Of a stretch of DNA of 51,907 nt, positions 11,451 to 39,378 are shown in pieces (the stretch's first letter is position 1; every line of letters begins with the position of its first letter). The position numbers and the translations under genes were made by a program. A model generated the notes under the pieces. It made no database searches. It saw only the letters and a program-made list of their open reading frames with translations, and was not told the DNA's origin. The stretch is from a virus. Lineage: Duplodnaviria; Caudoviricetes. The stretch spans positions 1 through 51,907 of the IMG/VR virus record IMGVR_UViG_3300017743_000014, one strand, 5' to 3'.

Positions 11451-13709
11451 TTACTGCGATTGAGCTGACTGATTCAGCTTGTTGATTACTGATGGGGGTG
11501 CAGACTCTATTATTGATTGAAGTGATGGAGAAGAAACTTCGTCTCCCATTTCTTCAACAACTGTTGGCCTTGTTGATATGGACAATGCGGAGGTGAACAA
11601 AGGCATATTGGTTCTTCTTAAATATTGCCTTGTTGCGTCTTTTGCGGCACCTGTGGCTTTTATGCCTTCAATCGCGTCAACTGCATCCCTACCAACAATT
11701 GGCACTATCCTCGCATAGTTAAGCAAGCCATTGCGAGCCAAACCTGACAAAACTGTGTAGCCTGAGTTTGAAGGATTCAATTTTACTTCAGCCCAAAGTG
11801 TAGGCATCACATCATTGCGGAACTGGCTTACACGTGCAATCTCATCAGGACTAAAGAGCAGACCTGTGATCGCTTTGTTTTTGACGAACACATCATCATA
11901 GTTGTTAACGATATTTGTGCGGGTGACACCAGACTTGCCAGACCCTGAGAATGCTTTCTCAAGAACTGCGTCTTTGGCTAATGCAACCACTTCTGAATAT
12001 TGATCTTCAGGCAGTGCTGCCTTCAGTTTATTCAAGACCAAACCCATTGATTGATTCGGGTTAAATTTTGCATGACCGAAGAATGCATTCACAACTTGCT
12101 TGGGGGTGAAGTTCTCATTTGTGATCATTGTTAGTATTCTGTTGGCTGCTTTTTCTTGAGCATCTTTGCCTGTGGCTTTTCCTGTCAGTCCGATGTACTG
12201 CCTGTAAAGGTCTGTGGCCTCTTTAAGCGAATCAAGAACAGCTTGGTCACCAGTCATAAAGCCTGATTCAATTCCATCAAAGACAGCTTGATCAACTTCT
12301 GTTTTAATTTTTCCGAGAGCCAATGCCTCTGGTGATCCTGCTTCTGCTGTCCTCATTGCTCTGTTAAGGCTTTTTTGATAACCATGCAAGATATTAAGTG
12401 GCGAACCTTTGAAACGAGGATTTTGGGCGAGCTTGTTAATTTTTTTCAAGTAGTCAATCTCACGCTTGAGCAAAGACATATCACCAAGCTCTCTGGCTGT
12501 AATGCCAAGTCCATCAGGGCTAAGCACTGAATCAAGAGCACGTTGAGAAGTCGTCAAAACTCCATCGCGAGTCATCACAGGCTGAAACTCAGACCCTTGA
12601 ACAACATCATAGGCTTTGCCTGCTCTGGCTTTAAGGCTTGCTGCGGCTGATACGCCTGTTGCTTGAATCTCTTCAGCGACTGCCGTTGGCACATCTGCGG
12701 CATCTGTTATTGCTGGGCGACCTGTTCCAAACTCATCAGCCAAAGCTGCTGCATCAGCCCTAATCTCATCAAGCTGACGCTCATCAAAACCACGAATAAT
12801 GTTTGCGGCAACTGGGTTAGTTCCTGGAGCACGACGCATAACGTCTTCAGACTCAAGATCTGGAGTGACCTTTTCAGTTGGTCCAGATTTCCTGTCAGGC
12901 AGAGGTGCGGTACGTTGCCCGACTGTCAGTGGGTACTTTGATGTTTGTATGTTCTTAGGCTCAAACCTTGGGAAAACTTTCGCCACAGTTTCGGAGACTG
13001 TGCTTGTGCCTGCTCTCAGAGCTTTGCTTGTGCCTTTGATTACTGGTGGTGCCAGAACATCAATAGCTACGCCCAAACCTGTAGCCACCCCGACATCACC
13101 AGCAACATCACCCATGTCTTGATCTTTGGCTTTTGTTGTTTCGGGTGTAAGCAATGCCTCACCAGCTTGCCCAGCCAACTCTGTGGCAGAGTATGCACCA
13201 GTTCCGCGAAGGATTGTTTGAACTATATTTTTTGCACCACTGACAAATTTACTAGCAGGTGCGAACTTAATTATCTCACCAGTCAGAGTCCCGATGTCTT
13301 GGCCAGAGAATCCTGGCTTGTTTACATAATATGGCTTGTCATTCCAAACAATCATAGGGTTGTCAAACTTATCAACAAATGCTCCACCCCAGCGTTCATC
13401 GTCGCCAAAGGTGTCTTCCATGATTTCAGCTTTACCAAAGTCGTCACGAGCGAACATTAGCTTGTTGTTCATCATGAATGCTTCAAAGAATCCTGGAGCT
13501 GCATCGCCCATGTCTGTTGTTTCAGGAATGTTCGGGAACTCAATCGGGATGCCCTCGCCAGTAGCAGCTGCATATATGCCTCCAGGAAGAGCAGCAATGT
13601 CTTCCCAAAGACTAGTTTCGTTTGCCTCAACAACTTGCTCTGCCTCAGGAGTCGGGTTGTTCCCTACATTAACACCGCCAGCACCAGCTGGTAAAGGAAT
13701 TCCTGCCAT
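11451..13709 (-). CDS. Large internal virion / DNA ejection protein
   Basis: Ala/Gly-rich helical protein at the end of the podovirus tail module. Start at TAATG overlap (13709). Confidence 0.6.
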   Translation of the reverse strand: MAGIPLPAGAGGVNVGNNPTPEAEQVVEANETSLWEDIAALPGGIYAAATGEGIPIEFPNIPETTDMGDAAPGFFEAFMMNNKLMFARDDFGKAEIMEDTFGDDERWGGAFVDKFDNPMIVWNDKPYYVNKPGFSGQDIGTLTGEIIKFAPASKFVSGAKNIVQTILRGTGAYSATELAGQAGEALLTPETTKAKDQDMGDVAGDVGVATGLGVAIDVLAPPVIKGTSKALRAGTSTVSETVAKVFPRFEPKNIQTSKYPLTVGQRTAPLPDRKSGPTEKVTPDLESEDVMRRAPGTNPVAANIIRGFDERQLDEIRADAAALADEFGTGRPAITDAADVPTAVAEEIQATGVSAAASLKARAGKAYDVVQGSEFQPVMTRDGVLTTSQRALDSVLSPDGLGITARELGDMSLLKREIDYLKKINKLAQNPRFKGSPLNILHGYQKSLNRAMRTAEAGSPEALALGKIKTEVDQAVFDGIESGFMTGDQAVLDSLKEATDLYRQYIGLTGKATGKDAQEKAANRILTMITNENFTPKQVVNAFFGHAKFNPNQSMGLVLNKLKAALPEDQYSEVVALAKDAVLEKAFSGSGKSGVTRTNIVNNYDDVFVKNKAITGLLFSPDEIARVSQFRNDVMPTLWAEVKLNPSNSGYTVLSGLARNGLLNYARIVPIVGRDAVDAIEGIKATGAAKDATRQYLRRTNMPLFTSALSISTRPTVVEEMGDEVSSPSLQSIIESAPPSVINKLNQSAQSQ

Positions 13710-15379
13710 TAGTTTGTGCCTCCCCAACCTTTAATTATGTATGGCGAGTTTGAATCAAATATGCCATTGTTGATTATTACAGACCCATCAGGCAGTCCGT
13801 TATAAAACTCAAGGACAGCTTCTTCATCAGAGGGATCGCCTAAGAATTTTTCAAAGATTCCTGTATCATTTGTCCCCAGAGCTGCGTTAACTTCTTTCAT
13901 GCTGCTATATTCACCCGAAGTTAAAAGTTCTGTCTCAAGTTGATTGAGCCTAACTCCATTTTCAGCCATCTTTTTAAAAGCATACAAAGAGATATAGTTG
14001 GCTTCAGGAGTGTTGCCGAGGTATAATGCTGCTTGCTGGTAGGCTTTAAATTCCATATCGGAAGTTGAACCAGAACCAACAGGACGCATCTTAGGAGCCA
14101 AGAAGTTTGAAGTCGCTTGCAAAGTCTCAAGACCCATAACTTCAGGATCATTGATCCCAAACGACTGATTAAATATCTGCTTGAATGGGAGCAGTGCTTG
14201 ATTAAGACGACCTGTTTCAACTTTACCAGACAACAATAGGCTCATCGCCTCATCAACCCTCGGGATAACCTCACGAGCTGTCGTGTTGTATGTGTCGGCT
14301 GACTTCGCAATGATCGGGAGACGCTTCTCAACATATGTCGTAAAGTATGGAGCTGCTGCACTTTTGGAAGGTGAAAGCTGAAGACTAATGACCTCTCCAT
14401 CTTTGAAGAGTGGGAACACCTCTGTATATACGCCAGCTTGAACGATAGGTTTTCCGACTTGAGCATCTCTTTTTGCTGTAAGTTGATCAACAAAAGATTT
14501 AAACTTAGGATTGTCTTTCGCCATCCCCTGAGAAATAACGAATGCTTTTGCATCTTCCGCAGTCATGTATGTTGCCAGAGTTCCTGCGCTAACAGTCTTG
14601 ATTGTGCTGGTTAAGGATTCAGGCTTGATGTCTGACCAACCACCTTCTTCACTTGTGGAAGAAATGTAATCAGCCTCAGAATAAACTTTTTTCTCTTCAC
14701 CATCTTTGTAAACTGTACGAGCAGAAAACTTTGTAGGTTTGCTGGTCAGGAAGAAGCCACCACCCTGCGCAGCATCAGAGGTCGCAGTTGAATAGGCTTG
14801 TGTTCCTGGAACAACTCTGACAGACTCACCAGAACTGTTATAAAGAGTTACGGCTGGCTGCTTGGTTGTCGGGTCAGCCATCTGGACAGTTCGGAGCAAG
14901 TTGCCTGCTTTGTCCTCAACCCTATAATTATAAAATGTTGCACCTGTTGTTTGATCAATCTTGACTGAACCATCTTCATTAGTCACTGGCTCTGCTCGCT
15001 TGTAGTTTTCGCCTACGCCTGTGCCTGCTGGTGATTTTGTAAGTTGTGCGATGTTAAGAGCTGTTTGAGGAAGAGATGCTTCATACTTCTGCTGGGCTTC
15101 TCTGTCTTTCATTAAATATTGTGCTGGGACGAGTGCTGCTTGACTTGCTGCCCCCAGAGCTGTGGCTCCTGGCTTTGAAGCCTCTGCAGCCATGTTAGTA
15201 AAAAACTGGAATGCAAGTTGTGCGGGTGTTAAGCCTTGTGGCCTTGGCTGAATTGATTGAGCCAGCTGGATGGCATTTGCAACATTATCACGTCCACCGA
15301 ATCCTTTAAGTGCACCCTGCGGGAGATTCAAGATGTTTGTGTTTGATGCTCCTAGGAGTTTATTATCACCAACAGCCAT
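13709..15379 (-). CDS. Internal virion / ejection protein
   Basis: Position in operon. GSGSTSDMEF motif, Ala/Gln-rich N-terminus. Confidence 0.6.
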   Translation of the reverse strand: MAVGDNKLLGASNTNILNLPQGALKGFGGRDNVANAIQLAQSIQPRPQGLTPAQLAFQFFTNMAAEASKPGATALGAASQAALVPAQYLMKDREAQQKYEASLPQTALNIAQLTKSPAGTGVGENYKRAEPVTNEDGSVKIDQTTGATFYNYRVEDKAGNLLRTVQMADPTTKQPAVTLYNSSGESVRVVPGTQAYSTATSDAAQGGGFFLTSKPTKFSARTVYKDGEEKKVYSEADYISSTSEEGGWSDIKPESLTSTIKTVSAGTLATYMTAEDAKAFVISQGMAKDNPKFKSFVDQLTAKRDAQVGKPIVQAGVYTEVFPLFKDGEVISLQLSPSKSAAAPYFTTYVEKRLPIIAKSADTYNTTAREVIPRVDEAMSLLLSGKVETGRLNQALLPFKQIFNQSFGINDPEVMGLETLQATSNFLAPKMRPVGSGSTSDMEFKAYQQAALYLGNTPEANYISLYAFKKMAENGVRLNQLETELLTSGEYSSMKEVNAALGTNDTGIFEKFLGDPSDEEAVLEFYNGLPDGSVIINNGIFDSNSPYIIKGWGGTN

Positions 15380-15383
15380 TCAC

Positions 15384-16493
15384 CTATCTCCCTTGACTCA
15401 TATAGTAAGCACTGGCCAAAGAGCCAAGCCCACCGAGTGTTTGTCCATAAATAGATGGCGTTTGAACATACTGCTGACCCTGAGAAAGAGAGTACTGAGT
15501 TGTCTCATACGGCACACCTTTAAGAGCACCCATAGCAAAGTTAAGCATCTGGAATGGATATTCTCTTTGCTCTACGTAATCTGAATAGGCCAAGTCAAGA
15601 GCCATCTGATCAAGCTTCCTGCGACCTTCTCCAGCAGAAAGCAATCCTGATGCTGCTTGTTCTGTCAATCCTTGAACCAAAGGTGCGAATGTTTGAAGTT
15701 GCTCTGCTGACCTTAGTCTTGAGGCTTCTTGAGTTTCGTAGCCAGCACGTTGTGCGCTCTCAGCCCCAAAACGAGCTTCTCTTTCTGTGTCAAAGTTTGA
15801 ACGCATTACATTCTCAGCTTGGAATCTTGCAGCCCTGTCTCTTTCTGATTGCGCTCTGTCTGCATCGAACCTTTGTGCACCAAACTGCAAACCTTCTGCG
15901 CCAGCTCTAGCACGGATGTCTCCTGCTGCCCTAGCAGTGCGGTCTGCCACTTCCATCTCTCCGAGGAACTGACGAGAACCTCCGAAAGATGATCCTGATC
16001 TTGCACGTTGTTGAATAAGTTGCTGTTGAAGTTGCCTTTCAGCTTCTGCGACTGCTGGGTCTGCGGCAGCTTGATACATGTCTATGAATGGCTGGGCTTG
16101 ATCAAGGCTAAACTGAGCAGATGGTCCACCTACAAGATCTTGCCTACTTGCACCTTCATATTCTTGGCCAAGAAGATCAGCACGAGATGCTTGATCATAA
16201 CCACTGCCAAGACGCTGTGTCGCATCATATGCTGCTTTCAAATATGGGTCGTAAACATCAGCACCCTGAGCCAAAAGACCAAAGCCTTGCTGCTCTTCTG
16301 GTGTTAGCTTGCTTCCACCATAGCTGGCGATCCTTGGACCTTGATACCCAGGATAATCACTTTTTGCTAGTTCTGCAGCTTGCTCAAAAAGGGTTCTGCC
16401 TCCTGCAGAAACCCAAGCAGGGATGTCTGTGCCTGTGAGAGTTTCTTCATATGTGGGTAAGTCTTCAACCCCTGTTGTACACAATCCACCCAT
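15384..16493 (-). CDS. Internal virion / DNA transfer protein (P22 gp7-like position)
   Basis: Gln/Ala-rich coiled coil, SFGGSRQ motif, hydrophobic Gly-rich C-terminus. Follows the GNAT gene. Confidence 0.6.
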   Translation of the reverse strand: MGGLCTTGVEDLPTYEETLTGTDIPAWVSAGGRTLFEQAAELAKSDYPGYQGPRIASYGGSKLTPEEQQGFGLLAQGADVYDPYLKAAYDATQRLGSGYDQASRADLLGQEYEGASRQDLVGGPSAQFSLDQAQPFIDMYQAAADPAVAEAERQLQQQLIQQRARSGSSFGGSRQFLGEMEVADRTARAAGDIRARAGAEGLQFGAQRFDADRAQSERDRAARFQAENVMRSNFDTEREARFGAESAQRAGYETQEASRLRSAEQLQTFAPLVQGLTEQAASGLLSAGEGRRKLDQMALDLAYSDYVEQREYPFQMLNFAMGALKGVPYETTQYSLSQGQQYVQTPSIYGQTLGGLGSLASAYYMSQGR

Positions 16494-16934
16494 CTATGCC
16501 TCCACGAACACTGAACCTGCTTTGGTCATGCCCAACTTTTCAAAGAACTTATCTTTACGTTCAAGATCTCCTGAAAAAATATGACCTAGCCTTACAGGTA
16601 GTTTAGCGTCATTTGCTGATTTTATAAAGTTTTTAATCAGATTAAGAGCTGCAGGAGTTTTACGATGATCAGGCGAAACATAAAACCAGTTGTCTGCAAG
16701 GAATTTTTCTTCCGACCACCAGTCTTGGCCGACCATCCCTCCGACAGACCCGATTAAATTATTTTTTTCATCCAATGCCACGAAAACAACACCTCTGTGT
16801 ATCACTTCATTTACTTTCGCCACCATCTTCTCGCTATTTATCTTTGGGGTTTCAAGCTCTGTACCTTGATGCATTTCTAGCAACATTCCCAATATAGCTG
16901 TAATATCAAATGGCGAAGCTCTCCTGATTTCCAT
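16494..16934 (-). CDS. GNAT-fold protein (T7 gp13 / P22 gp14-like position)
   Basis: MEIRRA...D, WFYVSPDHRK, KFFEKLG GNAT motifs. Confidence 0.75.
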   Translation of the reverse strand: MEIRRASPFDITAILGMLLEMHQGTELETPKINSEKMVAKVNEVIHRGVVFVALDEKNNLIGSVGGMVGQDWWSEEKFLADNWFYVSPDHRKTPAALNLIKNFIKSANDAKLPVRLGHIFSGDLERKDKFFEKLGMTKAGSVFVEA

Positions 16935-17260
16935 TACATGTTTCCAAGAGCACCCATATTTTTAGGCATGCCACCTGCTTGTTGGGGAGCTGCTTGACGC
17001 TGCATTCCTTTTGATTGCCCTGCGACAGCTTGTACGAGCTCTTGCAACTCTGGCAACAGCTTCATAAGAACTCTGGCAACTTCTGGGGTGATCGCAGAAT
17101 CAAGCATCCTCAGCTCTTCTGGACCCATGTTTGCCAGCCTTGACATAAGAACTGCACGGATGCCGTCTGATGATTTCATTAGGTTGGTGCGAGCTTCAGC
17201 TGGCATTGCTGCCAGAGGATTGGCAGTAGCACCATCCATCTTCATTGGTTCACGAGCCAT
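16934..17260 (-). CDS. Hypothetical protein
   Basis: TAATG coupling on both sides. Confidence 0.7.
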   Translation of the reverse strand: MAREPMKMDGATANPLAAMPAEARTNLMKSSDGIRAVLMSRLANMGPEELRMLDSAITPEVARVLMKLLPELQELVQAVAGQSKGMQRQAAPQQAGGMPKNMGALGNM

Positions 17261-18594
17261 TATTTAATCTCCTTTGGCTTATATAATACAGACCAGTCTT
17301 TGGTCTTTGAAAATGCACCCATGACCCAACATGTTGGCTCTAAAATGCGACGATATACTTTGCCTAAATAATCAGGCTTTTCCCGCTCACCATAAATGTA
17401 AGCTATTTCATTTGCTCTGTGCCCAGCAACATGTTTCCAAAAATTTACAAATTGACCTTTGCGCATCTGGCGTACCATCCACAAAGCCCATAGGTGATAA
17501 CCATTGACATGTTGCGGTGTTAAGTAATCACGAGTAAACCGATAATCAAGAACAACTTGCTTGCGAGTCATTACACCTTGACGACAAAGCTCGTTACATA
17601 TAACTCTGCCACCGAGAACCCCGCCAAGCACGCCACCGACAACTCCACCGAGTCCAGGAAGCAATGCATTTCCGATTGCAGTTCCGATTGCTGATGCGCC
17701 AGCTGACTTGGCTGCTTTCTCGGGATCTTCGCCCATAGCGAGTTGAACACCAAAGTTAACAAGACCAGCACCTGCGGCACCAGTCCAGTTTGCTTTTGCT
17801 GCTTCAGTACCATAAAGTCTATCGCCAACAGTTTCTATATATCCTGGAGTTGATGAAGATGCTGTGATTGCTTCGGATGTTATGTTGCCCTTGCCGTCTG
17901 CTACGGAAACAGAGCCTGACTTATCAACTTTGACTCCTGCTTTGCCTAACTCATCTGCGGTGTAAGAGGTAACATTGTCTCCGAGATTAGTTCCGACTTT
18001 ATCTCCTAGTTTATTATAAATGTCTAGGTTGCCTGTGGCTTCAGCGACATTCCTGTTGGCCAACTCAGAAACAACAATATTTTCTTTTGGCATTGATGCT
18101 ATATTATCAAACGCCAAACCCCTCACTGACGAGACTTCTTGCCCAGGAAGTTTACCGAATGTGCTTCCTACGCCTGAAAGAACTTTACTTCCTGTTCCTC
18201 CTGTCAAGTAAGGATCAAACAGTGCCGCACCAACTTGAGATGCTGCAGCTTGCCCTACTTGTCCAGCTGTGCCGATTGCTACTGCTTTGCCGATGTCTGA
18301 CCAATTAGGAAGTCCTGGAGGTGGCTCTCTGCCTTCTGTTAACTCTCTGTATTCTTCTAGCCTTTGCCTATCAACCAAATCATTAGGGTCATATGTGCGA
18401 GTTCCTGACTGAATGGTTTTGACCCATTCAAAAACAGGCATTGCTCCTGTGCCATAATTTTGCTGTATGTATTCAGCACTCACTGTTGGCGTTTGAGCTA
18501 CATTTTGATAAACACCATATACAACTGGCCTATCACCTTCTTCATCAAGCGTGAGGCCTGTCAGTGCTCCTGGATTATCTGTCACTTGTACCAT
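17260..18594 (-). CDS. Putative virion protein with glycine zipper and C-terminal VIC/GYxxW domain
   Basis: GTAIGNALLPGLGGVVGGVLGGVLGG followed by RVICNEL...GYHLWA. Confidence 0.65.
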   Translation of the reverse strand: MVQVTDNPGALTGLTLDEEGDRPVVYGVYQNVAQTPTVSAEYIQQNYGTGAMPVFEWVKTIQSGTRTYDPNDLVDRQRLEEYRELTEGREPPPGLPNWSDIGKAVAIGTAGQVGQAAASQVGAALFDPYLTGGTGSKVLSGVGSTFGKLPGQEVSSVRGLAFDNIASMPKENIVVSELANRNVAEATGNLDIYNKLGDKVGTNLGDNVTSYTADELGKAGVKVDKSGSVSVADGKGNITSEAITASSSTPGYIETVGDRLYGTEAAKANWTGAAGAGLVNFGVQLAMGEDPEKAAKSAGASAIGTAIGNALLPGLGGVVGGVLGGVLGGRVICNELCRQGVMTRKQVVLDYRFTRDYLTPQHVNGYHLWALWMVRQMRKGQFVNFWKHVAGHRANEIAYIYGEREKPDYLGKVYRRILEPTCWVMGAFSKTKDWSVLYKPKEIK

Positions 18595-18842
18595 TAGCTT
18601 ATGACTCCTTTCGCTTTCAAATCTTCAATTAATGTCCCTAAAACATCTGCCACTTCTGCTAAAGTTGTTGAGTCTGCGTCTAAAACATAATCTTTTGTTA
18701 CATTGGTTGTTTGATATGGTGTTGCAGAGGCAGAAGAATTTATTTCATTAAGCTGAAGCTCAATTGTCGATATGGTTCTTTGTGCCCAAGACTTGTCCCA
18801 TTCTTTGGGTGGCTGTGGCAATCTTACATTTATCCTGCTCAT
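18594..18842 (-). CDS. Small tail-associated protein
   Basis: LPQPPKEW...W.QR N-terminus. Coupled to the nozzle gene. Confidence 0.6.
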   Translation of the reverse strand: MSRINVRLPQPPKEWDKSWAQRTISTIELQLNEINSSASATPYQTTNVTKDYVLDADSTTLAEVADVLGTLIEDLKAKGVIS

Positions 18843-21249: not shown

Positions 21250-21250
21250 T

Positions 21251-22431: not shown

Positions 22432-22432
22432 T

Positions 22433-29588: not shown

Positions 29589-29639
29589 ATCAATCTCCTG
29601 TCGTGGCTATGTCTGCCGAAGCAGTCAGGGTTGAGTTGA

Positions 29640-29661
29640 GGGAGGAGCTTCTGCCCCTCCC
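29640..29661 (-). terminator. Hairpin after major capsid gene (no U tract)
   Basis: GGGAGGGGC-AGAA-GCTCCTCCC. Confidence 0.5.
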
Positions 29662-29670
29662 CACATTTGT

Positions 29671-30579: not shown

Positions 30580-30594
30580 TTTTATAGCCCTCCG

Positions 30595-31146: not shown

Positions 31147-31170
31147 TTTCGCTACTCCTTATTATAGCAG

Positions 31171-31656
31171 TTAATCATCAGCCATAACCGAAATGTCTCG
31201 GCCACGACTACTCGAAGATTTCCTATCCTGATGAATAGGAATGCCCCCTGTCCTTGCCATCGCATCAAGTTCTCCAGGAATCGATTCGTTCTGAGATTGT
31301 CCACGCTCACGAAAATATTCTTTCATAGCTTTGAATTTCTCTTCAGGCATTTCACATAAGATCATGCCTTCAATTCCAATTGAACCTGCCCACTGCCCGT
31401 GATTGATAGTTGGATATCTCTGATCTTTCACCGTATCAGCAGGACGAGGATTCCAGCCCGCACGCATACGCTTGTACACGTTGTCTGGAGTCTCTCTACC
31501 CTGAATCGAGGTAGCAATCCATCGTTGAACCATCCCAGGACGGGGATCGGGTGCGTCCAACAATGATGGTGGTTTCCATGCAGTATCTGGACGAGCATCC
31601 TCTGCACGGGTTTCGGAACGAGATTCTTGTGCACGCACATTTCTATTATTAGCCAT
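31171..31656 (-). CDS. Conserved head-module hypothetical protein
   Basis: W.PPS.LDAP.P.PG...RWI, R.GW.P, G.ILC..P.E. Confidence 0.7.
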   Translation of the reverse strand: MANNRNVRAQESRSETRAEDARPDTAWKPPSLLDAPDPRPGMVQRWIATSIQGRETPDNVYKRMRAGWNPRPADTVKDQRYPTINHGQWAGSIGIEGMILCEMPEEKFKAMKEYFRERGQSQNESIPGELDAMARTGGIPIHQDRKSSSSRGRDISVMADD

Positions 31657-31658
31657 GG

Positions 31659-32579
31659 TTAGCTCCTCTGCTGTTGTTTGATCTCATTAGCATATGCCTT
31701 CAAAGATCTTTCATCATTAATACCGAGTTCTCTAGCCATTCGTAACTGATCCTGTGTCATGCGAACCCTGTTTCCTTTGTAAGTTCCCGAACCGCCTGCA
31801 GTTGGGGCGACTGGTGCTCTGCTTTTTGTCCGAGGCTTACTCTGCTCGCTCCCTGAGCTTAACTCGGGGAACACATTAAGTAAACGATTATTAAGCAGTT
31901 CGTAATAATCATCACTATTTTTGTCATGACCTTCAAGGTCTAACTGCACATCAATCGCACGTGCTGCAGCAGTTTCACGCTCAAATCCTTGGGTATTGAA
32001 CCAACGATTTTTCTGCCACCAATCCATTGCTTTCGGTGGTGCGGGTTGCTGAGCAACTGATTCAGCTCGCCCAACTGTGGGCGAAACTGCTTGTGTTGCA
32101 GCTTCTTGCTTTCGCATTTCAGCAATGCGCATTGCCGCACGCATATCAGCTATTTGTTCAGTAAATTCGAGTTGGGCTTGAGTGTCACCTTCCTCCACTG
32201 ATTTGGCCAATGCTGCCTTTGTCTGCTCGTAGCGTTGATGAAATTCGTTTTCAGCTCGATGATTGTTTCCTTGCTCAAGTCTGGCAAGCCTTGCTTCAAG
32301 CTGTGCGACTTGATCTTGAGCTTGAGTTGTTTGTAACTCAGCTTCGCGACGTTGATCTACGAGTTTTTTGATTCGCGTTTGAACCTTTTGACCGTATTCT
32401 CCATCACTATCGGACTCTTGTACTTGTTCTTCAGCCTTTTCCTCAGCTGCCTGAACTTCATCAGAGCTTCCGTCGTCAATCTCGATTTCAAGATCTTCGT
32501 CATTTTGACCTTTTGTCTTTTCAATCTCTTTTTCGATTTCTGCCAATACTTCTTCTTGTGACATGGTAGCGTCCTCCAT
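31659..32579 (-). CDS. Capsid scaffolding protein
   Basis: Acidic N-terminus, VQ.RI.KL coiled coil, W..KN.WF, V.MT..Q..MA..LG C-terminus. Confidence 0.7.
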   Translation of the reverse strand: MEDATMSQEEVLAEIEKEIEKTKGQNDEDLEIEIDDGSSDEVQAAEEKAEEQVQESDSDGEYGQKVQTRIKKLVDQRREAELQTTQAQDQVAQLEARLARLEQGNNHRAENEFHQRYEQTKAALAKSVEEGDTQAQLEFTEQIADMRAAMRIAEMRKQEAATQAVSPTVGRAESVAQQPAPPKAMDWWQKNRWFNTQGFERETAAARAIDVQLDLEGHDKNSDDYYELLNNRLLNVFPELSSGSEQSKPRTKSRAPVAPTAGGSGTYKGNRVRMTQDQLRMARELGINDERSLKAYANEIKQQQRS

Positions 32580-32588
32580 GGTTAATCG

Positions 32589-32993
32589 CTATGTTAAATA
32601 TGATGTAAGGGTTGCACCTTCTGGGATGATTGATGTGATTTCATCATCATTCAGCAAGAGCATCTTTACACCATTCACTGTTAGTTTTTGACCTGCATAC
32701 TTCCCGTACGTAACACAGTCACCCACTTGTGGCCAATCGCCTTTCCATGAGCTGCCTGTTTCACGATCTCGGTATGCTAGTTCCCCTTTGGCCAAAATGT
32801 TTCCATGGGCAGTGAGATACTCCTCATTTTCCATGCTTTGGGATGGCAGATAGATTCCACCTTTGGTCTGTTTCTTAGCCTGATTTGGCTGAACCAAAAC
32901 TTTCCAACCCATAGGTTTTGGGAACTGATGCGACGCAATTGTCGCATTACTTTCCTCATCTGTGATGAGATCTTTTGCATGTGGATGAGACAT
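32589..32993 (-). CDS. GroES-like co-chaperonin
   Basis: PMGWKVLV, TKGGIYLP mobile loop, VGD.V.YGKYAG, LLNDDEI. Confidence 0.85.
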   Translation of the reverse strand: MSHPHAKDLITDEESNATIASHQFPKPMGWKVLVQPNQAKKQTKGGIYLPSQSMENEEYLTAHGNILAKGELAYRDRETGSSWKGDWPQVGDCVTYGKYAGQKLTVNGVKMLLLNDDEITSIIPEGATLTSYLT

Positions 32994-32996
32994 GAT

Positions 32997-33197
32997 TTAT
33001 ACATCCTCCTCGTCATCTAGTTTTTTCATCATATCGCCAATGATCTGATGAGCTCTGTCGAGACCCTCAGCTACACCGACGCTCTTTTTATACGACTCCT
33101 GATCTTGCATGCGACCAAGAACCATATTTTCAGCTATCGTCGCCCTCTCTTCTTTGAGATCTCTCTGAATCTTCCTCAACAGGTCTGTCACTGTCAT
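32997..33197 (-). CDS. Hypothetical protein
   Basis: Short helical ORF before groES-like gene. Confidence 0.7.
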   Translation of the reverse strand: MTVTDLLRKIQRDLKEERATIAENMVLGRMQDQESYKKSVGVAEGLDRAHQIIGDMMKKLDDEEDV

Positions 33198-33273
33198 TTT
33201 TTAACTCCGACTTTCCCGCCATTGAAACTCCAGAAACGAAGACTTCAACAACTTCAACTTCTTCATCATGCAT
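33130..33273 (-). CDS. 47-aa acidic micro-ORF (not in ORF track)
   Basis: MHDEEVEVVEVFVSGVSMAGKSELK..., start overlaps the upstream stop. Confidence 0.4.
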   Translation of the reverse strand: MHDEEVEVVEVFVSGVSMAGKSELKNDSDRPVEEDSERSQRREGDDS

Positions 33274-33412
33274 AAGATGATTTCTTTTTCATCTTTTTCT
33301 TGCCAGCCATTTTCTTCGTAGGCTTTTTCTTCATAGTCTTTTTCTTTTTACCTGCGTGATCCATCTTTGACCCTCCTTTGGTTATGAGCGATGAAAACGA
33401 AGCTCTGTTCAT
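33266..33412 (-). CDS. 48-aa Lys-rich micro-protein (not in ORF track)
   Basis: MNRASFSSLITKGGSKMDHAGKKKKTMKKKPTKKMAGKKKMKKKSSYA. ATGA-coupled to the upstream gene. Confidence 0.6.
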   Translation of the reverse strand: MNRASFSSLITKGGSKMDHAGKKKKTMKKKPTKKMAGKKKMKKKSSYA

Positions 33413-33705
33413 TTCTTTTTAGCCTTTTTCTTGCCTTTAATCAAATCGGCATCTGCTTTACGTGCGCCACCTTTGCCAGTAGCGAACGATCTTACCCGAC
33501 CAATAGCCCAAGAAGTGGGTGTTTGGCCAGGACGGGATCCTGATGAATAGTATGCGCCCATGCCTCTTTTGGCAACTTTGCGGAGCTTGTCTTTTGAAAA
33601 GCCTGAAGACTTACTATATTTATCAATAGCTGCTTCTAGGCCACCACCTTTTTTCTTTTTACTTGCGCTTTTTTTTGCTGGCTTTTTTGTAGCTTTTGGT
33701 GACAT
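33409..33705 (-). CDS. Basic protein, DUF5824-like
   Basis: LRKV..RG.GAY.SSGSRPG.TP..WA..RV.SF pattern. GGAGG RBS. Confidence 0.6.
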   Translation of the reverse strand: MSPKATKKPAKKSASKKKKGGGLEAAIDKYSKSSGFSKDKLRKVAKRGMGAYYSSGSRPGQTPTSWAIGRVRSFATGKGGARKADADLIKGKKKAKKK

Positions 33706-33883
33706 TTTTAGACCTCCTCTTTGCTATTCGCTCCATCTCAGCTTTGGTAAGTTTGCCTTCACGATACTTTTTGGCTGTGCTTTTAATTTCAGCTTCTTGG
33801 GCTTTTTTATTTTTTGCGCCAAGAACATATTTTACGTTGACGCCTTTTTTAGTTTTGGGCTGGGTTTTGAACTTGCGTGCCAT
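33659..33883 (-). CDS. Small Lys/Arg-rich protein
   Basis: GGAGGG RBS, highly basic. Confidence 0.65.
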   Translation of the reverse strand: MARKFKTQPKTKKGVNVKYVLGAKNKKAQEAEIKSTAKKYREGKLTKAEMERIAKRRSKNVTKSYKKASKKKRK

Positions 33884-34529
33884 TTTGCCCTCCTATTGCT
33901 GATAGTGCTCCTGGAGCTGCAATGCCCGCAACACTTAAAAATTTAATTAGATCGCCGAGAGTCCCGATGTTCCTGCTAGGGATCTCAACATCGTTAATAA
34001 ATGACTCTTCACTGAAGACTGGGGTGTCTGGTGACATTGTTTGCAGTCTTGGTGTTTTATATTGAGGGACAACTTCAACAAGTGACTTGGGATAGCCCAA
34101 CTCCTTCATGGCTGTGTTCATGTGCCTGCCATCATGCATGTTAACTTTCAAAGATCCATCATTTTGAAGCCTCAGACCCAGTTGCGGGAAGGTAAACTCC
34201 TCCCTAGGAACTCCTGCTGCTATGTCTGCTTTCTTTTTGTCAATTGTTTCTCTTATAAAGTCAAAACCCTTTTGATCAAGAGGCATCTGTGCAGCCATAT
34301 CAAGGAATCTTTGAGGGTCTGTTACGCCAAGGCCACTGCCTGCTGTTCTTGAGTTGTATATCGCTCTGCCAATGTCTTCTTCGTCATAGAGCTTGAAGAA
34401 TCTTGGATCCTCTTTTACTATTTTCTCAGCCTTTGCCCCGTATGTTGATGCTGTTTGATCAGGTGTCATGAATACCTTTTTGCCGAGGCTATCCAAAAAC
34501 TCGCTGACTATTTTTGATACTGCACCCAT
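33849..34529 (-). CDS. Hypothetical protein with ParB/Srx-like motif
   Basis: VNMHDGRHM.TAM..LG. Confidence 0.5.
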   Translation of the reverse strand: MGAVSKIVSEFLDSLGKKVFMTPDQTASTYGAKAEKIVKEDPRFFKLYDEEDIGRAIYNSRTAGSGLGVTDPQRFLDMAAQMPLDQKGFDFIRETIDKKKADIAAGVPREEFTFPQLGLRLQNDGSLKVNMHDGRHMNTAMKELGYPKSLVEVVPQYKTPRLQTMSPDTPVFSEESFINDVEIPSRNIGTLGDLIKFLSVAGIAAPGALSAIGGQNGTQVQNPAQN

Positions 34530-34531
34530 TA

Positions 34532-35662
34532 TTATTCGCCAACTATTGTAGTGTCTTGTTCAACAGCATTCATCCAATCAACAATGTTAACACGTGAATT
34601 AGGATATTCACTTTTGTATTGATCGAAGCTTCCTGAGAATGATTTCATTCTTGAGATCTCCTCTGCTTCATCAACAGGGAGATCAAAGCCCTCTTTTTTC
34701 ATCAGACCATCAGCTTCTTCATCTGACAGTTTGTAAATATCTTTGAGGTCTTCTTTTATAGCATCACGAACATCATCATATGTATCAGCTATATCAAATC
34801 TGCTTGAATCAGAAGCCTGATCAACAAGATCCATCATGTCATCACCAACATCTTCTATTTCATCAAGATTATCAATGAAATCATAATCGAATGTTTCAAA
34901 TTCTTCGACAAGATAATCGTCAATCAGTCGTTTTGCGTTTGGCAAGTCTCTTAAGATGTTAAAGTTTTTAGGAAGAGCTAGCCTCGTAGCTTTGGCAACA
35001 GGAGCGACATCATCAATCTTCCCCAAAGGCAACTTGCTCAGTGCACCTGCGACTGGTGTTGCTGCCATGCCTTGAACAAATGTTCTGCGAGGGATATTTG
35101 GACCAGCTGAAGCTATCAATGGCTCTGCATTTGGAACAATGTCTGAGGAAGTTTTGCGTCCCAAGCTACTCAAGAATCCCTTAATAGGCCTTGTGACTGC
35201 TTTGGCAAAGGGCAAAGCCTCAACAGCACTCAGACCCAAGTTAATGCTTGGCGCGATATAATCGGTTGCTGTTTGTGCCTTCCCTATATCTCTGGCAGCC
35301 TCCTCACTTGCATAAACCAGACCCATATTAAGACCTGTGTTCAAACTAGGGATCGGTATGAAATCAGCGATGCCAATGCCCCCAGCATTCCTTGGATCTG
35401 GACCAGCATTACCATAAATGCCTTCAGCGGCATCTTGTGCCAAAATTTTTGAAAGGCCACCATATTCTTGCAAAAAGTTTGCCAGTGCGGAGCGATCTTT
35501 CTCGCGCATTGTTGGTTCGTATGCACCAATAGTGCCTTCTTTGGCCATATAATCAGCTGTTGCCTGAGGAGCAAAATACATACGCCCAGTTGCGTCCATG
35601 CCTGTTTCGGGATTGAACAGGCGATCATTCTCTGGGTCGTAATAGTTGCTCTTGTCAGCCAT
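34532..35662 (-). CDS. Hypothetical protein (putative internal virion protein)
   Basis: Long ORF, TGATG coupled, acidic C-terminus, internal RRxFxxG motif. Confidence 0.65.
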   Translation of the reverse strand: MADKSNYYDPENDRLFNPETGMDATGRMYFAPQATADYMAKEGTIGAYEPTMREKDRSALANFLQEYGGLSKILAQDAAEGIYGNAGPDPRNAGGIGIADFIPIPSLNTGLNMGLVYASEEAARDIGKAQTATDYIAPSINLGLSAVEALPFAKAVTRPIKGFLSSLGRKTSSDIVPNAEPLIASAGPNIPRRTFVQGMAATPVAGALSKLPLGKIDDVAPVAKATRLALPKNFNILRDLPNAKRLIDDYLVEEFETFDYDFIDNLDEIEDVGDDMMDLVDQASDSSRFDIADTYDDVRDAIKEDLKDIYKLSDEEADGLMKKEGFDLPVDEAEEISRMKSFSGSFDQYKSEYPNSRVNIVDWMNAVEQDTTIVGE

Positions 35663-35853
35663 CAGACTTGTCCTCCTGAAAGCTCTCTCGCAAGAACCTG
35701 CAATGTTTCTTGAAAACCTTTGTCAAGCTCTTTTGCAGCCATGGCGAACTTCTTTGGGCTGACTTCTTCAGTCTTGATTCCTCTGCGATCTAAAAAACTC
35801 TTTGCTGCTCTTATTTCTGCTGCTGCTACTTTTTTGATTGCTGCTCTTGCCAT
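35662..35853 (-). CDS. Hypothetical protein
   Basis: Operon position and coupling. Confidence 0.6.
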   Translation of the reverse strand: MARAAIKKVAAAEIRAAKSFLDRRGIKTEEVSPKKFAMAAKELDKGFQETLQVLARELSGGQV

Positions 35854-35856
35854 GGT

Positions 35857-36066
35857 CTAACCTTTGATCTTTTTTGTTATATATAAAAATGCTGCGTAAA
35901 CAATGAAGCCATATATTGTTGCTATGCCTATGTCAAGCAAATGCTCACGCATATGATAAATAAATTCTATTCCTGCTTGAACGTCGCTTTGCGAACCGCC
36001 AGAGCCAATGTTAATTGACTTTGTGCCAACCTCTCCTATTGTTTGCTCAATATTTATTTCATCCAT
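35857..36066 (-). CDS. Small membrane protein
   Basis: Start re-assigned to MDEINIEQ. C-terminal TM segment. Confidence 0.6.
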   Translation of the reverse strand: MDEINIEQTIGEVGTKSINIGSGGSQSDVQAGIEFIYHMREHLLDIGIATIYGFIVYAAFLYITKKIKG

Positions 36067-36067
36067 A

Positions 36068-36325
36068 TTACCATGCCTTGCAAGACCAATAGCGTGCTTT
36101 TGTTTTTGGTCCAGGATTATCGCAGTTATGACGTGAGCGGAAGTTGCTTCTGCGTCCTTCTTGATTTTTCTTAATGCGCATGTTCGGATCCCCAAAAGTC
36201 ACACGCTTCACTCTATCGCCATCTTTAACATAAACGACAGATTTCTTTTTGCCATATGATGGTTCGCCTTTGCCAATGCGACGAGGCTTGTTAAGAGTTA
36301 CTGTGCGTCCTTTGTATTTGGCCAT
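36068..36325 (-). CDS. Small basic protein of the FRxRHxC...YWSC type
   Basis: V.FGDPNM.IK....RR..FR.RH.C.......ARYWSC..W. TAATG start. Confidence 0.7.
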   Translation of the reverse strand: MAKYKGRTVTLNKPRRIGKGEPSYGKKKSVVYVKDGDRVKRVTFGDPNMRIKKNQEGRRSNFRSRHNCDNPGPKTKARYWSCKAW

Positions 36326-36552
36326 TAATATATCCTCACAGAGTCTTTTTGAACATACTTGGGAATGCAATAAGACGTGACTTTGTCTTTGGCTGACATC
36401 CTGTCAAGGTATTGGTAGTTGCCATATCTTTTTGCCATTTGACTCGCATACCAGTTACACTCCACAAGATCGTAAAAATACATATCTTGACTTATAAGTT
36501 TTCTGCTGTCGCCAGCTCCTAAATAAACCATTAACAAAAAAACATGAACCAT
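36325..36552 (-). CDS. Hypothetical protein with hydrophobic N-terminus and Cys pair
   Basis: Coupled ORF. Confidence 0.6.
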   Translation of the reverse strand: MVHVFLLMVYLGAGDSRKLISQDMYFYDLVECNWYASQMAKRYGNYQYLDRMSAKDKVTSYCIPKYVQKDSVRIY

Positions 36553-36708
36553 TCATTTAGAGTGTGCTTTCTGCACTTCAAAAGACGCTTTCTTGCTAGC
36601 ACCTTTGTGAGACTTGTATCCTGTTGATGGGTCTTTCATTAGCTTATAGCCTTTGCCTGACTTCATCCAGTGAAAGCCTTTAGGTGCTTCTACGCTTCTT
36701 TTTGCCAC
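36553..36708 (-). CDS. Small basic protein
   Basis: GTG start behind AAGGAG. APKGFHWMK...LMK.P..GYK.HKGA. Confidence 0.6.
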   Translation of the reverse strand: MAKRSVEAPKGFHWMKSGKGYKLMKDPSTGYKSHKGASKKASFEVQKAHSK

Positions 36709-36832
36709 GCTTGTCTCCTTTGTATCCTGCCGCATAGATGGCTCTTCCTTGACGCTCGGCTGCTGCCTTTGTCTTGTAGACTTTGCCAGATGATCCCCAT
36801 CTGTAGCCACCTTTGACTTTGCGGACTGGCAT
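36680..36832 (-). CDS. 50-aa basic micro-protein (not in ORF track)
   Basis: MPVRKVKGGYRWGSSGKVYKTKAAAERQGRAIYAAGYKGDKRGKKKRRST. TAATG coupling. Confidence 0.65.
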   Translation of the reverse strand: MPVRKVKGGYRWGSSGKVYKTKAAAERQGRAIYAAGYKGDKRGKKKRRST

Positions 36833-37122
36833 TAGCTCATAATCTTTGGACCGCCATGACCAAGCATCTCATCCATTATACCAGCCATGTCGCCACCTTT
36901 TACTTTAATGACTTTGACTTTCATGCCATCGTCATGCATCTCATCCATCTCTTCGTCCTCAGACTCTGCACCAACGCCATATTCCATCTGCTGGCAAAGC
37001 AGCAAAAAGTTTACGAGCTGATCGTCCGAGAGCTCCAAGCCTTCCGAGTCATGAGCAAAGCCCATCTTCTCCATGAAGAGCTCTGCATTATTTTCCATGT
37101 TGTCTACTTCTACTTCAGCCAT
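36832..37122 (-). CDS. Acidic hypothetical protein
   Basis: AAGGAG RBS. Confidence 0.65.
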   Translation of the reverse strand: MAEVEVDNMENNAELFMEKMGFAHDSEGLELSDDQLVNFLLLCQQMEYGVGAESEDEEMDEMHDDGMKVKVIKVKGGDMAGIMDEMLGHGGPKIMS

Positions 37123-37123
37123 T

Positions 37124-38905
37124 TTAGTTCTCCTTTATAAATAAGCCAGTGACAAAAAACTGGGTTGTGCGTGCATAATATTTGATGCCCAGCATCAAGC
37201 CTTTTTTAACGCCACGACCATAGGCGACAAAGTCTTTGAATTCTTGATAGTGCTCACGAGCCTTGCCCTGATCAATACAACGTTGACCTGCAGCTCTGTA
37301 GCCTCTGCGAAATGCTTCGCCATACCACTTGCCGTGATATGTTTTTTGACACCACAACTCAGCTTTGGCTTTTTCCATTGGGGTGAAACCACCTGTCATT
37401 ATTCCATGAGTTGCGATCACACAACCACCGCCACCATTGCTGTCAGAATCATTGTTATCGTTTGATGAAGAAGTCGTGCCATCTTTGTCATTGGCTGTTG
37501 CTGCAATATTTGAAGATGAAGAGCTTGTGCTGTATTCTCCTGCGGCAGTTGGCGAAACACCTGAGCCTGATGAGATTCCTGAGCCTGTGCTAGTGCCACT
37601 TCCTGATTGGTCGTTGTTGTTGTTATCATCACTGCTAGCATCATTCGCAAACATTCCTGAGCTGGCAACTTCAAATGTTCCTGCTGGCCTTGGATCATCT
37701 TTAGCCTTTTGCATACCACTTGTTATGGCATCCATAATGCTTTGGCTGGTCAGATCTTCAGTAGGTTTTGATTCTGGCTCTGGTTCTGGCTCTGAGCTCA
37801 TGAAATCACTGAAGAAATTTCCTACAGATGAAAAAATATTGCCTGTTGTTTCAGTTTTATCTGGAAGTGCACCGAAGTTTGTGAATGTTCCGCCAGATGT
37901 TACAGGCTTTGATCCATCACCACTTGTGACTGCCTTGCCTGAACTGTCTGTGACAACTGAACCACCTACGAATGCTGAGCCACCTGAATCTTTCTGTTGT
38001 TGAATGTAATCAAGCATCTGCTGATTTGATACTGTTTTGTTTTCTTGAATGTCTTGGTAGGCTTGTGCTCCTGAGGACGTAGGATCAGAGAAAGCCTTAA
38101 CCTCATCAGCAGTAATAGTTCCATCATTGTTTAAGTCTGCTTGAGATGGCATCATATCAGTGTTGCCTGAAACAACTGTTCCGAAACCAAATAATCCAGG
38201 ACTCAAGCCAATTGGTGTTGTGGTTCCAGGAAGAGATCCAGGAGCATAAAAATCATAGCCTTCTGTGCCAGACTGAGTCTCGCCATAAATATTCTCAAGG
38301 TTGTTAAGTGACAACTGCCCAACAGCTCCGATGAGTCCACCACCACCTGTGTTGAATGGCGTTCCCCAAGAAGTTTCAACCATTGTAGGGTTGACGAGAG
38401 TTGATACCAAACCGAGTCCAGGAACAACATTGAATGTTGAATCAAGAGCTGTGTTTACTGCTAAATTAGGTACATTGACATCTCCGACTCCAGGAACAGA
38501 AAGATTTAGATTGCCAATATTATCTTGAACGAGGTTGGTGAGTGCACCATATTGCGTTTGGTTTAAATTAGGATTAAATGTTCCTGATGGACCAATCGCC
38601 CCACCAACAACAGGAACATTTGCATTGTCAGCCCCATCGCTTATAATATTTGTAATATCTTCTATGGGATTTGAAATGCCGTCGTCTGTTTCATCGTCAA
38701 GAGAAAATAGAGGATTAAATCCTGCCAGTGTGGCTCCTTGAAATCCACCTTTTCCAAATATGGGGGCATTCTGCCCTGCCAATGAAGCTCTGTATGCAGC
38801 TTCAGCTGCAGAGCCTGAACCTAGGATCGCACCTATCGACCCATCTTCTTCTTGATTTGTTAAACTTAAAAGTTGATCGGATGGTACGACTCCTGGAATT
38901 GCCAT
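37124..38905 (-). CDS. Low-complexity Gly/Ser/Asn-rich protein with CFI-box-like C-terminal domain
   Basis: Long disordered S/N/D linker followed by GGGGCVIATH...GEAFRRGY. Confidence 0.65.
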   Translation of the reverse strand: MAIPGVVPSDQLLSLTNQEEDGSIGAILGSGSAAEAAYRASLAGQNAPIFGKGGFQGATLAGFNPLFSLDDETDDGISNPIEDITNIISDGADNANVPVVGGAIGPSGTFNPNLNQTQYGALTNLVQDNIGNLNLSVPGVGDVNVPNLAVNTALDSTFNVVPGLGLVSTLVNPTMVETSWGTPFNTGGGGLIGAVGQLSLNNLENIYGETQSGTEGYDFYAPGSLPGTTTPIGLSPGLFGFGTVVSGNTDMMPSQADLNNDGTITADEVKAFSDPTSSGAQAYQDIQENKTVSNQQMLDYIQQQKDSGGSAFVGGSVVTDSSGKAVTSGDGSKPVTSGGTFTNFGALPDKTETTGNIFSSVGNFFSDFMSSEPEPEPESKPTEDLTSQSIMDAITSGMQKAKDDPRPAGTFEVASSGMFANDASSDDNNNNDQSGSGTSTGSGISSGSGVSPTAAGEYSTSSSSSNIAATANDKDGTTSSSNDNNDSDSNGGGGCVIATHGIMTGGFTPMEKAKAELWCQKTYHGKWYGEAFRRGYRAAGQRCIDQGKAREHYQEFKDFVAYGRGVKKGLMLGIKYYARTTQFFVTGLFIKEN

Positions 38906-39378
38906 TATTTTGCTCCTCTTGCCATCATCCTTTGCATGTCCATATCAGACATTGAGCCAGTCGGTGGAGGTGACTGAGGTGGCATTGACTTCATAACAGC
39001 ATCCAAAGCACCCATATCTGCATCACTCACAGCACCACCCATCCGTTCACGGATCTGACGAGCTTTTTCTTGAATGTAACGCATCATGCTTTCTTCATTT
39101 TGGAAATCAGGAGCTGGCATGTCACCAGACGGCATTTGTGACCTCATCATTGCTGCTTCTTGATCACTCATTGGTGGTCGCGATGCCATCGGATTCGGCA
39201 TCGGTGAAGCAGGCATTGAACTTCTCATCATTGCTGCTTCTTGATCACTCATTGCACCCATTAGAGGTGGAGCCATTCCTGCTTCAATCCCGCTGAATGC
39301 TCCTGGATTTACTGGCCTCATAGCCGAAAGTTGATTGGCTCCCATCATAAGAGCCATTTCTGTATCAGACATTGCCAT
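38905..39378 (-). CDS. Met/Pro-rich repeat protein
   Basis: Five (M/V)SDx(E/D) repeats including 2x MSDQEAAMMRS. Confidence 0.65.
   Translation of the reverse strand: MAMSDTEMALMMGANQLSAMRPVNPGAFSGIEAGMAPPLMGAMSDQEAAMMRSSMPASPMPNPMASRPPMSDQEAAMMRSQMPSGDMPAPDFQNEESMMRYIQEKARQIRERMGGAVSDADMGALDAVMKSMPPQSPPPTGSMSDMDMQRMMARGAK

Follow-up and report, generated by a model that had tools for sequence, protein, structure and literature searches.

A Gly-Ala-Leu peptide shared by unrelated late proteins of CRP-901-type marine podophages as a candidate tag for loading cargo into the procapsid

A seven-residue peptide built around the pattern G-A-L-x-x-hydrophobic, hereafter referred to as the GAL tag, recurs on unrelated late proteins of a virus genome of 51,907 nucleotides (Duplodnaviria; Caudoviricetes; IMG/VR record IMGVR_UViG_3300017743_000014, positions 1 to 51,907), the whole of which is termed the window in the present analysis. 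The window is a complete CRP-901-type marine podophage (CheckV completeness 98%). The tag exists as a recurrent unit, is selected at the protein level and has a definite distribution among protein families and phage clades. The carriers are predicted, from gene position and domain content, to be internal to the virion, and we favour, with modest confidence, the reading that the motif is an uncut docking tag by which ejection proteins and a variable effector cargo are loaded into the procapsid.

A sequence-only reading of the window had listed nine motif strings in eight putative internal virion proteins and had proposed that they represent either a capsid-targeting signal or a maturation cleavage site. 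All nine strings were located in the open reading frames (ORFs) and at the residues named there (Table 1). The carriers are encoded in two places, with four in the terminal block of the late region (13,709-18,594) and four in an island just downstream of the portal gene (33,849-39,378). They had been described as unrelated, and an all-against-all BLASTP comparison of the eight bears this out, with a best E-value of 0.099; the sole local match between the proteins of 369 and 556 amino acids (aa) is the 12-residue motif region itself. The Leu residue of the motif is specified by five different codons over eight window sites. Since the synonymous codons vary, the recurring unit is the peptide and the selection is not on the DNA, and a DNA-level motif was ruled out on the same grounds.

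Gly, Ala and Leu are common in the late proteins of the window (9.3, 10.5 and 6.7%, respectively). The tripeptide GAL alone occurs 14 times in these proteins as compared to 6.85 in shuffled sequences (p 0.007), a difference that is not significant over all the tripeptides. The longer pattern GAL-x-x-[FILMV] occurs nine times in the late proteins as against 1.65 in residue shuffles, with none of the 3000 shuffles reaching nine, and once in the early proteins as against 0.42. Among all the 8000 patterns of the form abc..hydrophobic, GAL..hydrophobic is the top pattern in the window. The enrichment in the window alone is, nevertheless, no more than suggestive, and the weight of the evidence lies with the relatives.

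The search was extended to relatives with the motif pattern fixed on the window before the relatives were examined. Eighty loci each were fetched around related portals, around the 633-aa virion protein and around the capsid gene; ORFs of the relatives were called on the gene strand and grouped into BLAST families, and one representative per family was counted. The cultured phage CRP-901 has 10 matches as compared to 2.35 expected (none of 1000 shuffles reaching 10) and CRP-902 has seven as compared to 2.17 (p 0.004). For the portal loci, 23-27 matches were observed in 207 family representatives (~28,000 residues) where 2.9 are expected, with Poisson probabilities of 1e-14 to 1e-17. GAL..hydrophobic again tops all the 8000 abc..hydrophobic patterns in these loci, the runner-up having a p of ~4e-5, and none of the 100 shuffles per trial gave any pattern so extreme. 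A de novo scan with three exact residues placed GAL second among the patterns of the near clade at the family level and found nothing that stood out in the sister clade, the scan being underpowered in single genomes.

The merged set, with the window late proteins included, comprises 2,376 unique proteins in 444 families (65,083 residues in the representatives), and the forward motif was counted 39 times in the 444 representatives. The reversed motif was found six times and the five other orders of G, A and L four to 15 times, while motifs with the hydrophobic residue one or two places nearer (GAL followed by it directly or after a single residue) gave four matches each. Shuffles within blocks of 10, 20 and 40 residues yielded a mean of ~8 and a maximum of 18 in 300. 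The sister HTVC023P-type clade (99 loci, 140 families, ~27,500 residues) has 3-4 matches as compared to 2.8 expected and thus no enrichment; HTVC023P itself has none as against 1.5 expected and the phage 023Pt_psg01 has two as against 1.72. Taken together, these counts establish the motif as real and as specific to the CRP-901-type clade, since it is enriched in the relatives of the window and shows no excess in the HTVC023P-type sister clade.

Alignments of the individual families located the motif at orthologous sites in seven of the eight carriers. The motif is found in 34 of the 35 relatives in the 108-aa family, or in 27 of 28 when each distinct sequence is counted once. Its consensus is M-G-A-L-[GKS]-[GN]-[MI] followed by 0-2 residues, and before it come a helical core, which is conserved, and a linker rich in Gln and Gly whose length varies; the window protein shows the same layout and ends in MGALGNM. 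The portal-adjacent 157-aa family retains GAL-x-x-[VI] near the C-terminus in 79 of 80 members, in the context RMGxGDM-GALxxV-xxAM. The second string of this protein, PGAFSGI, is part of a distinct conserved stretch, P-[IV]-N-P-x-A-F-G, in which P, N, P and F are invariant. This stretch is shaped like the tag, and some members of the 444-aa family likewise have GAF in place of GAL at the tag position. Nine of 11 relatives of the 556-aa protein keep GAL..hydrophobic at the same N-terminal site, in the context NLPQ-GALxxL-GG, with the tag at residue 22 in the orthologues from CRP-901 and CRP-902. The strict motif is present in 21 of 33 near relatives of the 369-aa protein, where G, A and L are conserved at 84% as compared to 58% for the whole alignment, and in 26 of 39 relatives of the 444-aa protein, the others having near-variants such as GAFGDI and GxxGALP. 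In the 226-aa family 15 of 24 sequences have the strict motif and the rest have GVLSQL, AALSQI or GTLGGL at the aligned C-terminal site; in the 376-aa family it is found in 15 of 23, with GAISQI and GTLGDL at the same column. Sites without the strict pattern thus usually carry a conservative variant (GVL, AAL, GTL, GAI or GAF). Judged from these alignments, the retention of the motif where the flanks have diverged beyond BLAST recognition is evidence of selection.

On the sequences compared, the tag is best written as [hydrophobic/aromatic]-G-A-L-[S/K/G/D/T]-[G/A/N/S]-[L/I/V/M]-[G/P], with a core peptide of seven residues. A carrier family was defined as one in which at least half of the members have the motif, and 38 of the 444 families are carriers, 17 of them with three or more members. 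The anatomy was examined at 39 sites in 36 representatives. The residue before Gly is hydrophobic or aromatic in 49% of the sites, the two variable positions are mostly S/K/G/D followed by G/A/N/S, the closing residue is L, I, V or M, and Gly or Pro follows it in 17 of the 39 sites. The tag may be at the N-terminus, at the C-terminus or internal, with some tags starting at residue 4-5 and some ending the protein, and the sites are closer to the termini than expected: 23 of 39 are within 30 residues (10.3 expected) and 12 within 15 residues (5.4 expected). Most of the carriers belong to no known family. A PBECR5 nuclease domain (44.7 bits) was identified on CRP-902 gp65, whose tag lies 14 residues before the C-terminal end, and LysM and TrAA12-like domains on the carrier CRP-901 gp72; other carrier domains include weak GNAT, DUF7178 and a sub-threshold ART-PolyVal match. 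PBECR and related domains have been predicted by Iyer and colleagues to be packaged in the virion and injected (PMC5512222).

The core proteins lack the tag. The motif is absent from the capsid protein (0/80), a cement-like 183-aa protein (0/75), a 161-aa protein (0/72), the scaffold-like protein (0/65), the adaptor (0/64), GroES (0/58), the large terminase (0/77), the small terminase (0/20) and the lysis proteins. Sporadic matches in the portal (4/80), a fibre-like family (7/59) and the 633-aa, nozzle-like family (9/56) look like chance, and the tenth strict match in the window, GALRAL in the portal, is likewise probably fortuitous.

The tag is carried by two sets of proteins, the conserved ejection-type proteins encoded at the end of the late operon and the products of fast-changing genes between the portal and the scaffold, some with effector-type domains (PBECR nuclease, LysM, GNAT). 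In the reading that we favour, the uncut tag would bind one common site in the assembling procapsid, in the first place on the scaffolding protein and otherwise on the capsid inner face or the portal, so that any tag-bearing protein would be taken up into the head and would leave it later together with the DNA. Entry into and exit from the capsid are the only plausible property common to ejection-type and effector-like carriers. A short, position-free peptide on linkers and termini has the look of a docking tag, and the motif sits at termini and on variable linkers, is confined to the portal-proximal island and the distal ejection block, and accompanies effector-type domains on some carriers. 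Of the earlier interpretation, the short linear motif on unrelated late proteins, enriched and conserved in orthologues, has held, and neither of the two outcomes named beforehand as refuting it, a lack of enrichment over shuffled controls or of conservation in orthologues, was obtained; docking is suggested by the anatomy of the sites, and the cleavage-site alternative is disfavoured.

Both the action by binding and the identity of the receptor are inferred, the latter by analogy with other phages. In phage P22 the incorporation of gp7, gp16 and gp20 needs the scaffolding protein and not the portal, and the N-terminal parts of gp7 and gp20 suffice (PMC8402733). Since the ejection proteins of P22 need the scaffold and not the portal, and by analogy with T4, the scaffold-like protein is the first candidate receptor, the other candidates being the inner face of the capsid and the portal. 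The scaffold architecture is conserved in both the CRP-901-type and the HTVC023P-type clades, so that their comparison is uninformative about the receptor. P22 resembles the phages considered here in being a podovirus without a head protease that loads ejection proteins into the procapsid. It differs in that no common linear motif is described in the part of the source at hand, where each ejection protein is said to have its own binding site (PMC8402733). The polyvalent proteins and the effectors fused to MuF or portal proteins also carry effector domains (PBECR RNase-like, ART, GNAT and others) which are predicted to be packaged and to be injected at an early stage of infection (PMC5512222). 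In these, however, the domains are covalently fused in a giant polypeptide or to MuF or the portal, while here they are encoded by separate genes with a seven-residue tag.

Several observations weigh against a docking tag on all these proteins. In 11% of the shuffled window proteomes some equally extreme pattern arises, giving a family-wise probability of ~0.11 for the window by itself. Most of the sites had been described as lying in terminal or disordered segments; the terminal part of this description stands, with six of the nine window sites within 30 residues of a terminus, whereas the disorder enrichment is slight, disorder-promoting residues making up 0.56 of the flanks as compared to 0.53 at random sites in the same proteins. 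The BLAST families may split fast-evolving orthologues, so that the independent origins of the tag would be fewer than the 38 carrier families, and several families of ~500 aa with the tag at residues 18-27 resemble divergent orthologues of the 556-aa protein. Some proteins of the ejection block lack the tag altogether, namely GNAT (0/34), a 758-aa family (0/8) and a 147-aa family (0/15); if these are packaged, the tag is not the sole route into the head. The 369-aa site lies within a larger conserved block, with GVLQGT in 55 and the strict motif in 63 of the best 120 of 688 homologues from a large protein database, for which the source names are just 'hypothetical protein' and one gene-call string. 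This block persists without GAL in the sister clade, and the 369-aa site is therefore the least certain tag. In the 593-aa protein, the region around YGALTNL is rich in indels, and neither of the two homologues found has this string; at the conserved N-terminal site of that family one homologue has a strict NPGALVGL and the window has GAILGS.

It is also conceivable, although unlikely, that the tag acts during or after ejection, as a helix-packing or strand element for a core or a trans-envelope conduit, in the exit through the portal channel, or on a host factor. The carriers need to leave the capsid as much as to enter it. The fourth position after the Gly is Gly, Ala, Ser or Asn in 27 of the 39 sites, hydrophobic residues are found at -1, +2 and +5, and such a G-x-x-x-small pattern would be compatible with tight helix packing; the small portal-adjacent protein with its two conserved elements could, moreover, bridge partners. 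However, the flanks are too weakly hydrophobic for membrane segments in most of the carriers, it is not evident why soluble cargo of the effector type (nuclease, GNAT, LysM) should need to join a conduit, and the known precedents for a peptide on unrelated internal proteins are loading signals.

A more specific form of the docking reading, to which we would give only a small chance, is that the tag is a protease-independent and position-independent loading peptide and attaches to the HK97-fold capsid protein on its inner face (or to the scaffold), in the manner of encapsulin cargo. Encapsulin targeting peptides have the consensus DGSLGIGSLKG and the native form PLTVGSLRRGG, and their 'GSL motif' is called widely conserved (PMC7925596). 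They are similar to the GAL tag in being short, in lying on flexible linkers, and in having a Gly-small-Leu core with hydrophobic anchors spaced by small residues. They bind the inner face of an HK97-fold shell, and the capsid protein here is also of the HK97 type. The 108-aa family shares the encapsulin layout of a helical core, a variable linker and a C-terminal MGALGGM. The tag is at the end of a linker or C-terminal in the 108-aa family, the 226-aa family and several cargo families; many others have it at the N-terminus or internally. Unlike the phage proteins, encapsulins are cellular compartments, and their peptides typically sit at the C-terminus, often with a final Lys or Arg, while the position is free here. 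The cores also differ, being GAL rather than GSL (seven matches of GSL..hydrophobic in the merged set as compared to 39), so that the resemblance is one of style and not of sequence.

The internal proteins of T4 share just a capsid targeting sequence (CTS), which guides them to the scaffolding core and is able to bring foreign proteins into the head as well (PMC3012670). The resemblance to the T4 CTS (IPI-III, Alt) is that one short peptide is the sole feature common to diverse, fast-evolving proteins, with packaging being surmised in the present case. The T4 CTS is strictly N-terminal, has about 10 residues, ends at a prohead-protease site and is removed. The GAL tag, by contrast, is N-terminal, C-terminal or internal and unrelated in sequence, no protease was detected in the CRP-901-type window (37 late and 22 early proteins), and T4 is a large myovirus while CRP-901-type phages are small podoviruses.

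The T4 precedent also bears on the cleavage alternative, in which the motif would be a recognition site for a head-maturation protease, with or without a targeting role, and to which we attach little credence. A motif shared by head-internal proteins is a protease site in T4 (L/I-x-E) and in giant phages (S/A/G-x-E) (PMC3012670, PMC7411985, PMC10052503), and several tags lie 4-30 residues from the N-terminus, with room for a short propeptide. However, no protease family was detected in the 37 late proteins with Pfam and PHROGs or in the 22 early proteins with Pfam, 59 ORFs in all, and the model of the unassigned 161-aa protein of the head module showed no fold match. The capsid and scaffold proteins, usually the main substrates, lack the motif, and the portal has it only in the few cases given above. 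No L/I-x-E-type site follows the tag in a logo of the 39 sites, and in the 108-aa family a cut would remove almost nothing, since only 0-2 residues follow the motif.

The notion that the motif has no function of its own and reflects Gly/Ala/Leu-rich composition, a common structural turn or unrecognised homology may draw on the abundance of the three residues in late proteins, the window-only family-wise probability and the chance-like matches in the fibre-like and nozzle-like families, but is close to refuted by the local-composition shuffles and the reversed and permuted motifs (4-18 as compared to 39 observed), the lack of excess in a sister clade with similar proteins, the retention of the motif between diverged flanks and the absence of any other similarity among the carriers.

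The principle of a shared capsid-addressing peptide is thus already known from T4 and the encapsulins. What appears to be new, from the sequences compared, is the sequence of the tag, the freedom of its position, the fact that a clade of small podoviruses without a protease has it, and its spread across about 38 families. A term search of the paper on CRP-901 and CRP-902 (PMC10149686) found neither 'motif' nor 'internal virion', and keyword searches of the open-access literature found no description of the GAL tag.

Table 1. Carriers of the GAL tag and other features of the window; nt, nucleotide positions.
Feature	Position	Strand	Remarks
556-aa carrier	13709..15379	-	distal ejection-protein block; QGALKGF, residues 21-27; GALKGF at nt 15299-15316
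369-aa carrier	15384..16493	-	MGALKGV, residues 321-327; GALKGV at nt 15513-15530; inside conserved block NFAL-GALxGV-PY
GNAT acetyltransferase	16494..16934	-	within ejection block; PHROG acetyltransferase match, E 2.8e-17
108-aa carrier	16934..17260	-	MGALGNM just before the stop; GAL starts at residue 103; GALGNM at nt 16937-16954
444-aa carrier	17260..18594	-	PGALTGL, residues 8-14; GALTGL at nt 18553-18570; weak tape-measure-like PHROG match
Major capsid protein, 302 aa	29671..30579	-	HK97-type; Pfam Phage_capsid_4 and Mu-like gpT; PHROG major head protein
Scaffold-like protein, 306 aa	31659..32579	-	acidic N-terminus, coiled-coil-like middle, conserved C-terminal block
GroES	32589..32993		Cpn10, E 6e-13; between cargo island and scaffold gene
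226-aa carrier	33849..34529	-	portal-proximal variable island; PGALSAI at residue 207, 14 residues from C-terminus; GALSAI at nt 33894-33911
376-aa carrier	34532..35662	-	internal AGALSKL, residues 205-211, between N-terminal part and acidic C-terminal part; GALSKL at nt 35030-35047
593-aa carrier	37124..38905	-	YGALTNL, residues 119-125; GALTNL at nt 38531-38548; degenerate IGAILGS at about residues 24-30
157-aa carrier	38905..39378	-	Met/Pro/Gln-rich; MGALDAV at residue 123, nt 38995-39012; PGAFSGI at residue 26, nt 39286-39303
Portal protein, 820 aa	39365..41827	-	PHROG portal match, E 2.5e-34
Replication module, first stretch	3855..6668		replication module; this stretch and that of the next row go with a module that includes bacterial-type DNA polymerase III alpha (DnaE with PHP domain) and ThyX
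Replication module, second stretch	510..1154		replication module

The late genes of the window are on the minus strand, from ~45,300 down to 11,006. The order begins with the small and large terminases, the portal, a run of genes without known families, GroES and the scaffold-like protein, continues with two small head proteins, the major capsid protein and SU10-type adaptors, and ends with fibres, lysis genes, the 633-aa virion protein and the terminal block, whose large proteins belong to no known family. In the capsid protein the identity is 81% with the Roseobacter phages CRP-901 and CRP-902, as compared to 59% with the pelagiphage HTVC023P; a megablast search with 11 kb of the window against the phage collection gave no match. 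The replication module is unlike that of CRP-901 and CRP-902 in having the DnaE-type polymerase and ThyX; an exonuclease of the RNase T kind, a phosphatase of the PNKP type and proteins like Pam3 gp32-34 are also encoded there. With this distinct replication module joined to a CRP-901-type structural module, the genome is a mosaic of modules.

The portal is 72-87% identical across the 80 related loci and marks where the variable cargo island begins. The stretch from the portal to GroES is a hypervariable gene island: the 80 portal loci together with the window late proteins gave 853 proteins in 227 BLAST families (both sides of the portal), with many families downstream of the portal found in few loci. 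The portal itself, the terminase and the small protein next to the portal are, by contrast, constant. The GNAT family is present in 34 near-clade loci and in 0/18 far loci, the same clade as the tag, and is itself untagged. A link between GroES and the tag was considered and ruled out, as HTVC023P and 023Pt_psg01, the two annotated records of the tag-less sister group that were examined, also encode GroES. The scaffold-like protein is homologous to HTVC023P gp37 (29% identity). The model of the 161-aa head-module protein (predicted local distance difference test score, pLDDT, 62.6) had no PDB fold match at E <= 0.001, and Atlas gave unnamed viral clusters only; for the 183-aa protein Atlas gave a weak lead to phage cement proteins (0.84). 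The AlphaFold model of the capsid protein, built from an alignment of 18 rows (83-92% identical), has a mean pLDDT of 33.7, and in sequence searches of the PDB no match below E 0.28 was obtained for the capsid profile or for the proteins of 369 and 556 aa.

Some of the carriers show further features. Residues ~290-330 of the 444-aa carrier form a glycine-zipper-like hydrophobic segment (LPGLGGVVGGVLGGVLGG), which suggests a membrane-inserting ejection protein; in relatives the segment aligned with it at times has a fortuitous match to the GAL pattern (IGGALGSI). A string HDGRHM in the 226-aa carrier resembles the DGxHR signature of ParB/sulfiredoxin-like nuclease domains, and no Pfam match was obtained for this protein even at E <= 1. 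A twin-arginine translocation (Tat) signal at residues 189-207 of the 376-aa carrier (RRTFVQGMAATPVAGAL) was rejected, with an E-value of 0.093 and 13.2 bits as compared to a cut-off of 22.7 and a location that is not N-terminal. In relatives a run of 8-12 residues that are small or hydrophobic (A, P, V, I) stands before several C-terminal tags, which may thus form a subclass that is longer and hydrophobic. Residues 254-271 of the 593-aa carrier include an EF-hand-like calcium-binding loop (DLNNDGTITADE; E 7e-4, under the Pfam cut-off). The start of the 157-aa gene overlaps the end of the portal gene by 14 nt. The two short conserved elements of this protein flank a single helix, and it could be a bivalent adaptor; its window-like relatives have extra repeats of the MSDQEAAMMR type.

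In tailed phages that lack a head protease, the loading of ejection proteins and internal cargo into the procapsid is poorly understood, P22 included (PMC8402733). A defined seven-residue tag turns this into a simple question for binding and packaging assays in the cultured phages CRP-901 and CRP-902 (Roseobacter sp. FZCC0083). It also offers a means, from sequence alone, to list the probable injected proteins of an abundant group of ocean phages, and the set so listed is a fast-changing island with nuclease, LysM and acetyltransferase domains that is likely to be relevant to counter-defence and to the takeover of the host. Should the tag be sufficient for loading, it could serve to package foreign proteins in podovirus heads. 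If the encapsulin-like form of the docking reading is true, a roseophage genus that is abundant worldwide would load interchangeable injected effectors by appending seven residues, and this would provide a mechanistic, and possibly an evolutionary, bridge between the packaging of internal proteins in phages and the cargo loading of encapsulins.

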